From assembly GCA_038239195.1 (NCBI GenBank), contig JBBSEZ010000028.1, positions 1-24,000 on the forward strand: a DNA stretch of 24,000 nucleotides, given 5' to 3'. The position numbers and the translations under genes are program-made. Every line of letters begins with the position of its first letter. The stretch's first letter is position 1. A model generated the notes under the pieces. The model did not search any database. It was not told the DNA's origin and worked only from the letters and a program-made list of their open reading frames with translations. Shown piece by piece: positions 3,859 to 12,404 of the stretch. Source of the stretch: Gemmatales bacterium. GTDB taxonomy: Bacteria > Planctomycetota > Planctomycetia > Gemmatales > Gemmataceae.

Positions 3859-5184
3859 TTGGCCCGGAGAGCGTTCATGCCTGGTCGGACGGAAACGTGG
3901 TCGGTCCTCGCGGCGCTGGCCGGCGCCTTGCTGGCGCTGGCTGTCCTCGCCCGCGTGGGCCGGGTGCCGTTGCTCTACAACCTCCGCAACCTCCTCATCC
4001 GCTGGCGGACCTCGCTCTCCACCACGCTGGCCTTCACCCTCGTCATCGCCCTGCTCATCGCCATGCTGGCCTTCGTCCGTGGCTTCCTGCGCATGACCGA
4101 GGGCAGCGGCCATCCCGCCAACGTCATGGTCCTCTCGCGCGGGGCCACCGACGAACTGGTCAGCTCGATCACCGCCCAGGAGGCGGGGGCGGACGTGGCC
4201 CTACAGCCTGGCGTCCTGCGCGACGCCCGCGGCCGGCCGTTGTGCAGTCGCGAGGTCTACGTCGTGGTCAATCAACTCCTGCCAGGGACGGAGCCGGGCA
4301 AGACCAAACGCCGGATCGTGCAGGTCCGCGGCCTCGCCGACCCCGACCTCGCCGCCGCGGTGCGCGACCTGGGGCCCCTGGCTGCCGGGGAGTGGTTCTC
4401 GACCGCGGGCGTTCGCGCGTTGCCTTCGGGCGGGGGCGGCCCCTCGGGGTACGCCATCGAGACGGTGATCGGCCAGGGGATCGCCCGGCAGTGGCACCTG
4501 GGCGTCGGCGACGTGGTCGAGGTCGGGCCGCGCTCGTGGCTCGTCGTGGGCATTCTGCCGGCGGGCGGTACGACCTACGACTCCGAGCTGTGGGCCAGGC
4601 ACCAACAGGTGGGGCAGGCCTTCGGCAAGGAGCACTCCTTCACGTCACTCCTGCTCCGCACCAAGAACGCCGACGCGGCCCGCGCCGTCAGCGAAGACCT
4701 CAACCTCAACTTCAAGAAGGCCTCCCTCCACTTCCTGCCGGAGACGGAATACTACGCGCGCCTCGCGGCCACCAGCCAGGGGTTCCTGACGGCGGCGTAC
4801 GTGCTGGCCGCCATCCTCGCCGTCGGCGGGGTGCTGGGCGTGATGAACACGATGTACGCCGCGGTGGCCGAACGGCGCAAGGACGTCGCGGTGCTGCGCG
4901 TGATCGGCTTCGCGCGCTGGCAGGTGCTGCTCTCCTTCCTGATCGAGTCGCTGCTGCTCTCCCTGATCGGCGGCGGGTTGGGCTGCGCGCTGGGCGGGCT
5001 GGCGCACGGTTGGTCGGCGAGCAGCCTGATCGGCAACCGCAACATGGTGTTCACGCTGCGCGTGGACGCCGAGACGCTGGCCGTCGCCATCCTCTTCACG
5101 TTGGGCATGGGGGCGCTGGGCGGGCTGCTGCCGGCCCTGTCCACGCTGCGCGTGCGGCCGCTGGAGGCGCTGCGGGCGGGGTAG
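3859..5184 (+). CDS. ABC transporter permease, FtsX/MacB-like (the likely true start is ATG 3877)
   Basis: NLRNLLIRWRTSLSTTLAFTLVIALLIAMLAFV forms the N-terminal TM. The C-terminal FtsX domain is VAVLRVIGFARWQVLLSFLIESLLLSLIGGGLGCALG. The ORF begins 4-22 nt after the upstream permease stop. Confidence 0.8.
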   Translation: MARRAFMPGRTETWSVLAALAGALLALAVLARVGRVPLLYNLRNLLIRWRTSLSTTLAFTLVIALLIAMLAFVRGFLRMTEGSGHPANVMVLSRGATDELVSSITAQEAGADVALQPGVLRDARGRPLCSREVYVVVNQLLPGTEPGKTKRRIVQVRGLADPDLAAAVRDLGPLAAGEWFSTAGVRALPSGGGGPSGYAIETVIGQGIARQWHLGVGDVVEVGPRSWLVVGILPAGGTTYDSELWARHQQVGQAFGKEHSFTSLLLRTKNADAARAVSEDLNLNFKKASLHFLPETEYYARLAATSQGFLTAAYVLAAILAVGGVLGVMNTMYAAVAERRKDVAVLRVIGFARWQVLLSFLIESLLLSLIGGGLGCALGGLAHGWSASSLIGNRNMVFTLRVDAETLAVAILFTLGMGALGGLLPALSTLRVRPLEALRAG

Positions 5185-9590: not shown

Positions 9591-9861
9591 TGGTTGAACT
9601 TACCCGCCGGTGGGGGCTTCTCCCCTGGGGGCATTCAATCCAGTCTCCCGACTCTCCACCCGATGCTACCCCACGCCGGCCCCTGCCGCAAGCACTTTCC
9701 GCCCGCCCCGGTCCCCGCATCGGCGCGGCGCTTTTGCCTCTCTACTGCCGCCCACGGGGCGCCCCCGCCACCCGGGCAACCGCAGCCGGCGCGCGCACCG
9801 CGTATGCCGACGGGCCGCCACGCCGCCCTGCGCCTGCCTCGCCGCCGCCACCACGCGCCCC

Positions 9862-10390
9862 TCACGAATTGTCCACTCCCTCGATGGCCACGACGGGCCC
9901 CGCCACCCCGGGCGCCACTTCGCCGTCCCGGACCAGCGGCCCCACCCCGCAACGCGGGCACAACTCCGCCTCGGCCGCCGATGCCACGAACGCAGGACCA
10001 CGTACGCCAGCGGCCACAGCAGCCGACGGCACAACGACAACTTCTCCTCACTCCCCCGGTTGGCCAGCAGGCCGTAGTGCCCCGCCGCCACGAATCCCCG
10101 CGGCAGCACGTGCCCCGTCCAGCGCCGCAAGAGCTCCACCACCCCCCGCGTCAACTCCTTGGCGCGGCCCCTTGCTCCTGCTACCCCGGGGCGTGACTCA
10201 CTGCCGCTCTCTTGCCGCGTCGTGGCCCGTCTAACGGGGCCGGCCTGTCGGGCTACAACAGCAGCGCCCGGCAGTTCAGCCGCTCGACCAGCAAGCGCCT
10301 GGGCAACGCGACCTCGTGCTTCTGGTCGCGGCACGTTACCAGCAGCGCGTGCTGCTCCGGCGTCGCGGGATCGCGTTCGACGTGACTGGC
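9862..10390 (-). pseudogene. IS91-family (Y2/rolling-circle) transposase, C-terminal remnant with frameshifts and an in-frame stop
   Basis: Three minus frames each carry a piece. The first is ..TPEQHALLVTCRDQKHEVALPRRLLVERL.. (compare the family GGPEQVLRYLGRYTHRVAISNRRL). After a TAG and a frame change comes ..KELTRGVVELLRRWTGHVLPRGFVAAGHYGLLANRGSEEKLSLCRRLL (the family hallmark HVLPxGFxRIRHYGLLANR). After another frame change comes ..AEAELCPRCGVGPLVRDGEV..VDNS followed by a stop at 9862-9864 (C-terminal CPxCG ribbon). No N-terminal catalytic half is present. Confidence 0.55.
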
Positions 10391-10630
10391 ACTCAAGATG
10401 GGTGAAAGCGAAGGGACACAAGGGGCGAGGAAGAAGGGTTTTGGCGGAGAACGCCAAGGGGCGGGCGCGCCCCTTTTCGTCGCGAGGGAAGAAATCGCCC
10501 ATGAAATCGGGGCCATCCCAAGAAGTCACTCAAAGGCGCCTCGCAACGACGTACGCGCCACCGGTAGCCTTCTTGATGGTGGGGCGCATTCCCTGTTCCG
10601 GGCGCCCCGTCCCCCATCGAGGCTCACGCC

Positions 10631-11572
10631 ATGTCCCCCTTCCTGCCCGATGAGGCCCCCCGCCCCGATGCCGCGCCGACCGCGGAGAGCTCCACGAGCC
10701 CCAGCGGCCGCGATCACCGCGGCCGGTTCATGAGAGGCAACCCCGGCGGGCCGGGCAACCCGTTCGCCCGCCGGGTCGCCGCCCTGCGGGTGGCGCTGCT
10801 GCGCCCGGTCGGGGAGGAGCAGATGGCGGCGCTGGCCGACCGCCTCCTCACGATGGCGCTGGGGGGCGACCTCGTCGCGGCGAAACTGGTGCTCTCCTAC
10901 TGCGTGGGCAAGCCCGGCCCGTCCGTCGATCCGGACAGCCTCGACCGGCACGAGTGGGAACTCTGCCGCAAGTCCTCGGTGTCCTCCGAGGAGATGGTGG
11001 TGGCGATGGGCGTGCCGCTGGCCTTCGCCACCACCGTCGTGCGCGAGTCCAGCCCCGGCGTCGCCCAAGGCCTCGCCGACCAGATGCTCGACGGCCTCGC
11101 CGAGCAGGCCCGACTTGACGCCGAGGAAGCGGAGGAGGAGGCCGCCCTCGACGCCGAGGAAGTGGAGGGCAAGGAGGACGAGGACGAGGAGGAGGCGCAG
11201 CCCGAGGCCGCTCCCGCCACGCCGGCGCCCGAGGCGGGCTGGGCCGTGCCGCAATCGCTGGCGGCGATCCTGGCGGCGCTGGGCCTCGGCTCCCTCCCGC
11301 TGCCCGGCGTGCCCGGCGCGGGCAGCCCGACGATCCCGCTGGCGGGCCCGGCGAGCGAGGGCGCGGCCGCCCGCCGCACAGCCTGCCCGCCGGCGGGGCG
11401 GGACTATTCCAGCCGTCACCCCACGGCGGCTAACGGCGGTGCGGGGGCCGCTCCGGACCGTCACCGCACGGTGGCTAACGGCGTGGCTAACGGCTGCCCG
11501 GGGCCCGATCCGCGCGGGGCGGGCCGTCACCAGACCGGGGCTAACGGCGGGCCTGTCTCTGGGGCGGGGTAA
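10631..11572 (+). CDS. Hypothetical protein with an N-terminal GRFxxGNPGGPGNPFA motif (DUF5681-like?), an acidic linker, and a C-terminus built from DNA repeats
   Basis: 313-aa ORF with host-like GC3-rich codon usage. It contains GRFMRGNPGGPGNPFARRVAALR..GDLVAAKLVLSYCVGKP and a long E/D/A-rich stretch. The last ~55 aa (RHPTAANGG..RHRTVANGVANG..RHQTGANGG) are encoded by the GTCACC/GCTAACGG boxes. Confidence 0.55.
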   Translation: MSPFLPDEAPRPDAAPTAESSTSPSGRDHRGRFMRGNPGGPGNPFARRVAALRVALLRPVGEEQMAALADRLLTMALGGDLVAAKLVLSYCVGKPGPSVDPDSLDRHEWELCRKSSVSSEEMVVAMGVPLAFATTVVRESSPGVAQGLADQMLDGLAEQARLDAEEAEEEAALDAEEVEGKEDEDEEEAQPEAAPATPAPEAGWAVPQSLAAILAALGLGSLPLPGVPGAGSPTIPLAGPASEGAAARRTACPPAGRDYSSRHPTAANGGAGAAPDRHRTVANGVANGCPGPDPRGAGRHQTGANGGPVSGAG

Positions 11573-12000
11573 GGGGCCAGGCGGAGCGCCGGGGGCCTCC
11601 GGCCTGCCTTCCGCAACGGGCAGGTCGAAGACCTGCCCCACCCCTGCCGAGCCGTCACCGCACGGCGGCTAACGGCGGCGCGAAGCCCGGCCCGGCCCGT
11701 CACCCAACGGCGGCTACTGCGTCCGACCTTTCTAAAGATACAGGCTCCGCAGCGACATAGCGATGTCACTGGGGTTGGTTTCCCTAGACATGAGGCAGTG
11801 ACATCGGCACGTCACCTAGAGGATGGGTGTCTTTAGAAAGGTCGGACGCAGTAACGGCGGCGCGGGACCGATGCGGGCGGGCCGTCACCAAACCGGGGCG
11901 AACGGCCGCCCCGCTCCCGCGGCGAGGTGAAGCGTCACGGATCGTGGGGCAAGCCTCCTGCCTGCCTTTTTACACGGGCAGGTCGGCGACCTGCCCCACG
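11411..12000. repeat. Tandem duplication of a ~235-bp unit (I: 11411-11650; II: 11651-12000, carrying a MITE). Each unit has three CCGTCACC-N2-AC(G/C)GG-GCTAACGG boxes and a terminal 9-bp-stem hairpin
   Basis: The boxes lie at 11413-11439, 11458-11494, 11524-11550, 11652-11678, 11697-11716 (resuming at 11852-11860) and 11882-11908. Within-unit spacing is conserved at 45 nt, then 66 nt in unit I and 48 nt in unit II (MITE removed). Both units end with gggcaggtc-NNN-gacctgccc (11618-11638 and 11976-11996). Confidence 0.75.
11715..11853. mobile_element. MITE-like element: 135 bp (11717-11851) with 22-bp perfect terminal inverted repeats, flanked by a TA target-site duplication
   Basis: The TIRs are ctgcgtccgacctttctaaaga (11717-11738) and tctttagaaaggtcggacgcag (11830-11851). 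The flanks read ..acggcggcTA[element]TAacggcgg... Uninterrupted sister boxes read acggcggcTAacggcgg, which serves as an internal empty-site reference. An inner 11-bp hairpin pairs cgatgtcactg (11761-11771) with cagtgacatcg (11796-11806). The core is visibly lower in GC than its surroundings. Confidence 0.7.
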
Positions 12001-12017: not shown

Positions 12018-12404
12018 GCCGCTGTCGGGGGCCGTGTCAGCGCGTTGACGATCCCGTGGAGTACCCACACGAGCCCCGAGGTCGCCCGCGTCGGGCTGTC
12101 CGAGCGCGAGGCCAAGGAGCAGGGCCTCCCGGTGGACGTCTTCACGCAGTCGCTCTCCGGGGTGGACCGGGTGGCCCTCGACGACGAGGTGGAGGGCTTC
12201 GCCCGCGTGCTGGTGAGGAAGGGCGCCGGCAGGGTCGTGGGGGCGACCGTCGTGGCGGCGCACGCGGGGGAGATGATCGCCGAGGTAACGCTGGCGATGA
12301 CGGCCAAGCTGGGGCTGGGGGCGGTCGCGAGGGCCGTTCACCCATGCCCCTCGCGGGTGGAGGCGCTGAAGAAGGCGGGCGACGCCTCCAACCGCACGCG
12401 GCTC
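12018..12404 (+). pseudogene. 3' fragment (dimerisation domain only) of a pyridine nucleotide-disulfide oxidoreductase (mercuric reductase / dihydrolipoamide dehydrogenase-like)
   Basis: ..GGRVSALTIPWSTHTSPEVARVGLSEREAKEQGLPVDVFTQSLSGVDRVALDDEVEGFARVLVRKGAGRVVGATVVAAHAGEMIAEVTLAMTAKLGLGAVARAVHPCPSRVEALKKAGDASNRTRL matches the C-terminal interface domain (IPWxTYTxPEVAxVG, GFxKV, GxxIVGxxAGE, HPxPT/S). There is no FAD/NAD(P)-binding N-terminal ~350 aa upstream. The frame opens only at 11931, inside repeat unit II. Confidence 0.7.

Follow-up and report, generated by a model that had tools for sequence, protein, structure and literature searches.

The IS630 family, which includes IS630 of Shigella sonnei and ISY100 of Synechocystis, is part of the IS630/Tc1/mariner superfamily, and CTAG is the classical target site of IS630. 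Bacterial MITEs derived from this family are also known, namely RUP of Streptococcus pneumoniae and Nezha of cyanobacteria. In addition, MITEEc1 is an IS630-type MITE in ISfinder (bioRxiv 10.1101/2024.01.18.576219). For ISY100 it was demonstrated in vitro that the transposase alone binds the terminal inverted repeats (TIRs) via its N-terminal domain with two helix-turn-helix motifs, that it cuts both ends, and that insertion occurs almost exclusively into TA, which is duplicated; the flanking TAs were shown not to belong to the element that is excised, and the mechanism is that of Tc1/mariner (PMC2170065). In eukaryotes, the Stowaway MITEs of plants and insects depend on Tc1/mariner elements and often have only their ends in common with the autonomous element (PMC3814204). 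A literature search for IS630 MITEs in Gemmata or planctomycetes turned up no paper.

We analysed a stretch of 24,000 nucleotides (hereafter the window; contig C28, bases 1-24000) from a Gemmataceae MAG of 10.1 Mb with 68.9% GC in 714 contigs, which is 92% complete with 6% contamination. The 135 bp at positions 11717-11851 of the window are very probably a non-autonomous MITE of an IS630-family lineage that circulates in Gemmataceae. Its related full-length elements resemble those of the IS630 family in size (~1.1 kb), in the single transposase gene with helix-turn-helix and DDE_3 domains and a full-length match to NF033545, and in the ~25-bp TIRs with insertion into TA and its duplication (PMC2170065), while the window element, unlike an IS630-type IS, is 135 bp long and without transposase. 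It is like the bacterial IS630-derived MITEs in being small, non-coding and intergenic, with strong hairpin potential, a TA duplication and TIRs in common with IS630-type IS. Unlike MITEEc1, RUP and Nezha, it is present in two full copies and two solo ends with no partner IS in the assembly, and it has only the TIRs in common with the IS; it is likened to these MITEs by description, not by sequence. With Stowaway it shares the presence of TIRs, the TA duplication and the putative mobilisation in trans by a mariner-like transposase, although Stowaway elements are eukaryotic, reach thousands of copies and have no evolutionary link to the window MITE beyond the superfamily.

The element and its insertion site

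The features of the region are as follows.

10631-11572, forward strand: ORF of 313 aa with C-terminal SRHPTAANGG-type repeats; paralogue on C357, 56% identical over 270 aa
11411-11641, forward strand: unit A, the uninterrupted sister unit and empty-site reference; the 3' end of ORF 10631-11572 makes up its first 162 bp
11650-11999, forward strand: unit B, non-coding tandem duplicate of the gene tail and hairpin, host of the MITE
11697-11862, forward strand: box 5, the interrupted repeat; left part to 11716, right part from 11852
11715-11716, no strand: left TA target copy; a single TA at the equivalent place in the sister boxes
11717-11738, forward strand: left TIR of 22 bp, CTGCGTCCGACCTTTCTAAAGA; putative transposase binding and cleavage site
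11739-11829, no strand: core of 91 bp, non-coding, lower in GC and roughly palindromic
11830-11851, reverse strand: right TIR, exact reverse complement of the left TIR
11852-11853, no strand: right TA target copy, the duplicated target

The TIRs are perfect (22/22), and the inverted repeat continues imperfectly past them, with 25 of 26 bases paired; by arithmetic, the chance expectation for a perfect 22-bp inverted repeat within ~150 bp in 24 kb is ~1e-7. An earlier note made from the window's letters had proposed a 135-bp element with 22-bp TIRs and a TA duplication at 11715-11853, and this description proved exact to the base. The same note described a lower-GC core with a nested 11-bp hairpin, which was borne out: the GC content of the MITE is 54.8% versus 68.9% for the genome, and a perfect 11-bp inner hairpin in the core pairs 11761-11771 with 11796-11806. 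As for coding capacity, a single ORF of 80 aa or more overlaps the element, on the minus strand at 11527-11769; it also extends through the flanking repeat, and we consider it spurious.

The suggestion that a transcript of the element would form a long rod-like RNA agrees with the predicted fold, a single rod of -72.1 kcal/mol (z = -8.7; none of 200 shuffles was as stable), and for the second copy in this genome the prediction is -87 kcal/mol (z = -11.8). Rods of such stability could also be those of a structured RNA gene or of a terminator-like palindrome kept for a host function, in which case the TIRs would be the stem of a long hairpin. However, an Rfam scan of the MITE matched no family, a scan for promoter-like sites found none in it, and no T-run follows the stem; further points against this explanation come from related genomes and are given below.

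Region 11411-11999 consists of two tandem units, A followed by B. The sister boxes at 11415-11436 and 11654-11675 are intact and have the sequence ACGGCGGCTAACGG, and once the MITE and one TA (137 bp) are taken out, unit B is collinear with unit A over its whole length, the joint is GGCTAACGGCGG and the box consensus is regained in box 5. Because unit B without the 137 extra bases aligns collinearly with unit A, these bases are an insertion into TA and not ancestral sequence, and the alignment contradicts an independent origin of the boxes around an ancestral 135 bp. The statement that the insertion and its TA duplication can be read from the window's own sister boxes thus stands, and the reconstruction is exact. 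The empty site is paralogous here (the sister units), not orthologous, and it is this paralogous sequence that points to mobility of the element.

In a fragmented MAG (714 contigs, 6% contamination), a chimeric join made in assembly or binning could also place foreign bases within a repeat. Against such an artefact, the join is base-exact on both sides and its removal restores the repeat unit, the same element with the same architecture lies on a second contig, and the architecture is found again in independent assemblies of other genera, so that we regard an artefact as extremely unlikely.

The boxes, which had been treated as independent DNA boxes of a repeat array, turned out to be duplicated coding repeats of a gene C-terminus: they translate in frame with ORF 10631-11572 into the SRHPTAANGG-type peptide repeat that ends the protein, and the C357 paralogue ends in the same type of repeats. 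We rejected the possibility that the boxes are protein-binding or regulatory DNA sites, as they are in-frame SRHPTAANGG codon repeats common to the 56%-identical paralogue. More copies of the box repeat are present on C214, C225, C211, C248, C161 and C82. Unit B repeats the gene tail together with the closing hairpin 3' of the stop codon, and is therefore a non-coding pseudo-duplicate. The target was the TA of ...GGCTAACGG... inside this non-coding tandem copy of the 3' tail of the gene, and the insertion thus spared intact genes. Units A and B diverge by 16-27% and the two MITE copies differ by 6%, and an insertion that postdates the tandem duplication would be consistent with these divergence figures.

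Copies in this genome and relatives across Gemmataceae

BLAST and pattern searches found a second full copy at C485:4702-4836, with 127 of 135 positions identical (94%), perfect 22-bp ends and TA on both flanks, at an insertion site unrelated to that of the window; the check for further TA-flanked copies, proposed in the earlier note, therefore had a positive outcome. This copy is intergenic, 63 bp 3' of a RES-toxin/Xre-antitoxin pair, and likewise downstream of an HD_assoc ORF in convergent orientation. The pair itself (L002:3553-4638 on C485) consists of a RES-domain toxin gene followed by an Xre/MbcA/ParS-type antitoxin gene, directly upstream of the second MITE. Both copies are thus in accessory, toxin-antitoxin-rich surroundings. 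All eight differences between the copies fall in the core and none in the 28 terminal bases of either side; under an even spread, the probability of this outcome is ~0.014 (by arithmetic), which hints modestly at present or recent constraint on the ends.

Two solo ends complete the set. One, at C48:4331-4358 (L001:1832-1859), is identical over 28 bp and has TA on its outer side, and the other, at C280:12674-12695 (L003:3175-3196), is a TIR variant with four mismatches, followed by TA. The C280 end resembles the TIR subtype CTGCGTCCCGCC... of three other Gemmataceae genomes (G063, G069 and G174). No inverted partner was found within 650 bp of the C48 end, and the C280 end is also without a detectable partner. 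A search of this genome with the transposase P0001 of a related IS (described in the next section) found no transposase near the solo ends, with no match on C48. The C48 end was considered as the start of a longer element, which was rejected given the missing inverted partner within 650 bp and the lack of a P0001 match on C48.

In this 92%-complete MAG there are accordingly full copies on C28 and C485 and solo ends on C48 and C280, the smallest number at which an element is still multi-copy. Two full copies at 6% divergence is a low number for a MITE, and there is no sign of current activity. The earlier note spoke of a MITE caught in the act; this is true to the extent that the adjoining unit shows the sequence as it was before insertion, but as a claim of a recent event it is overstated, since the two full copies are 6% apart.

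A search of 252 Gemmataceae species genomes for the 22-mer TIR, allowing three mismatches at most, gave matches in 15 genomes of 14 genera (this genome and 14 others), versus three single hits in all for a reversed-pattern control in the same 252 genomes. Pairing of the ends gave 12 distinct elements in 8 genomes, which are listed below.

99 bp, MITE: G048
100 bp, MITE: G012
119 bp, MITE: G063 (two elements) and G069
122 bp, MITE: G051
135 bp, MITE: this genome (two copies)
200 bp, MITE: G052
1,416 bp, full-size IS: G051
1,097 bp, full-size IS: G076 (two copies)

The dinucleotide TA is present at 24 of the 24 flanks of these elements, where ~2% per dinucleotide would be expected by chance at ~69% GC, and the possibility that other copies lack TA flanks is thereby contradicted. 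Beside the TA, 9 of 12 elements have A on one side, and 11 of 12 have T or C on the other. The preferred target looks like T/C-TA-A, to be compared with the CTAG of IS630.

The TA flanks alone leave room for another description, in which the ends are 23 bp long (A...T) and lie between a T and an A with no duplication. The element could also belong to another superfamily, either as a palindrome-associated IS200/IS605 derivative or as an IS5-type MITE. With a single TA in the empty site, TA+element+TA and T+(A-element-T)+A are indistinguishable by sequence alone. However, the full-length elements with matching ends encode IS630-family DDE transposases and not HUH/TnpA or IS5 enzymes, a 3- or 4-bp target duplication fits none of the 12 sites, and in ISY100 the flanking TAs do not belong to the element that is excised (PMC2170065). 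Taken together, these points make both another superfamily and an insertion with no duplication very unlikely, and the IS630-type MITE with a duplicated TA is the description we follow.

From one genome to another the MITEs keep their ends but have unrelated cores. A search of the 252 Gemmataceae genomes for the core of the 135-bp MITE recovered it in this genome alone, twice, with just chance-level matches (E ~0.003-0.006 per genome) elsewhere. These comparisons also bear on the structured RNA or palindrome described above: the stem sequence is that of the ends of transposase-bearing IS in related genomes, the core, which forms the structure, is not conserved between genomes, and all 12 elements have TA flanks. 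A host RNA or palindrome is for these reasons most improbable as an explanation of what we continue to treat as a MITE. An exact-pattern scan of all GTDB species representatives returned only Gemmataceae/Gemmatales MAGs and one Clostridia hit; the latter is in line with chance, as ~2 would be expected (by arithmetic).

IS630 elements with matching ends and the possible source of transposase

The 1,097-bp IS of G076 has a TIR that matches that of the window MITE at 19 of 22 positions, with differences at positions 5, 7 and 8, and contains one ORF for a protein of 341 aa (P0001), with the stop codon of the gene inside the right TIR. P0001 matches the NCBIfam model NF033545 'IS630 family transposase' over its full length with 172.8 bits (cut-off 100), its Pfam domains are helix-turn-helix domains followed by DDE_3, and its acidic residues are D167, D251 and D287/E288. 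The two intact copies (L024:1501-2597 on contig C7 and L047:1501-2597 on contig C14) are in opposite orientations and at different TA sites. Since they are 1092/1097 (99.5%) identical at different TA sites, this IS moved recently, and it is apparently active, which makes it the best candidate as transposase source for this MITE family.

Other genomes contain less intact relatives. The 1,416-bp IS of G051 (L019:1501-2916; C3:201625-203040) has the same transposase gene at ~60% identity, split into two frames and with ~280 extra bases, and is probably broken. The same genome also holds a 122-bp MITE (L044:1401-1522) with the TIR subtype of its IS, with which it has only 25-30 terminal bases in common. 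A truncated IS on contig C10 of G048 retains the last 128 transposase residues, 70% identical to P0001, directly beside a TIR that matches that of the window MITE at 21 of 22 positions; through this linkage the MITE ends are physically tied to IS630-type transposase genes. Another frameshifted copy of the transposase gene is present in G174.

Based on the C485 copy, the TA-flanked relatives and the IS630 elements with near-identical ends, we agree with the assignment of the element to IS630/Tc1-mariner-derived MITEs made from the window sequence. An origin of the MITE as an internal-deletion derivative of an IS was rejected, as only the ~25-30 bp of the TIRs align, both against the IS of G076 and G051 and between the G051 MITE and the IS of its own genome.

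As the MITE carries two ends and nothing else, it would move only with transposase provided in trans. By analogy with the IS630 family, an IS630-type DDE transposase would bind the ~25-bp ends with its N-terminal helix-turn-helix domains and excise the MITE through double-strand cuts; its 3' OH ends would then be joined at 2-bp staggered positions of a TA, and repair of the stagger would leave the TA duplicated.

The search for an autonomous IS630 element with the same ends succeeded in other Gemmataceae genomes, where the ends are near-identical, but found none in this assembly. The best match of P0001 in a tblastn search of this assembly has 24% identity and contains a stop codon. A Pfam DDE_3 scan of the genome gave six loci, and none of the six has the TIR when up to ten mismatches are allowed; TIR fragments were not found at the contig ends of the assembly either. 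The shortest contig kept is 2,312 bp, and the contig of a collapsed IS of ~1.1 kb could have been discarded; because a 1.1-kb contig falls below this minimum, the absence of a partner IS from the assembly is weak evidence of its absence from the genome. The window MITE is probably an orphan or near-orphan, inserted some time ago and now immobile, and the alternative to this state is a partner IS that is present but unassembled.

To hypothesize further, a single IS630 lineage in at least 14 Gemmataceae genera may have repeatedly given rise to unrelated MITEs that share only ~25 bp per end with it, with the MITE in this genome as an orphan whose ends stayed identical while its core diverged by 9%. 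We consider this scenario in its entirety as possible but rather unlikely. If it is true, either a distantly related resident transposase still mobilises the MITE or the partner IS was lost recently, and the system would be a natural case for the capture and upkeep of MITE ends without a cognate transposase.

Surroundings and significance

The ORF at 10631-11572 belongs to a multi-copy gene family for a protein of ~310 aa whose middle part is acidic and rich in E/D and whose C-terminus has SRHPTAANGG-type repeats, with paralogues on C357 (~3946-4125 region, minus strand), at C214:5235-5466 and at C225:12268-12399. The protein encoded by this ORF matched no Pfam or PHROG family. In the window, the last 160 bp of the ORF and the closing hairpin are tandemly duplicated. 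This closing hairpin of the repeat unit (GGCAGGTC-N3-7-GACCTGCC) lies at 11619-11638 and 11977-11996 of the window and is also found on C68, C136, C616 and C668; each of its six genome occurrences is followed by CCCAC or preceded by a GTGG-like context, and it may be a common terminator or REP-like motif.

Remnants of other genes adjoin the repeat region. On the forward strand, 12045-12400 encodes only Pyr_redox_dim (E = 7e-26), the C-terminal dimerisation domain of a pyridine nucleotide-disulphide oxidoreductase; the N-terminal ~330 aa are absent, and the break adjoins the repeat and the hairpin. On the reverse strand, 9666-10529 weakly resembles Y2_Tnp, the transposase of IS91 type (E = 4.5e-4, narrowly short of the Pfam cut-off), and a decayed remnant of an IS91 element beside the repeat region would fit this match. 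For annotation, we advise masking the 135 bp as a mobile element and treating the interrupted boxes as a pseudo-duplicate of the gene tail and the ~7.5 kb around the MITE as an accessory mosaic.

The window MITE is of the textbook IS630/Tc1-mariner type and is new only in its host group and in the particular IS/MITE lineage, and views on how such elements work are unchanged by it. It shows a target duplication cleanly, with a tandem sister repeat within the window for comparison, and together with its IS630 and MITE relatives it extends the sparse record of mobile elements in Gemmataceae (Planctomycetota).
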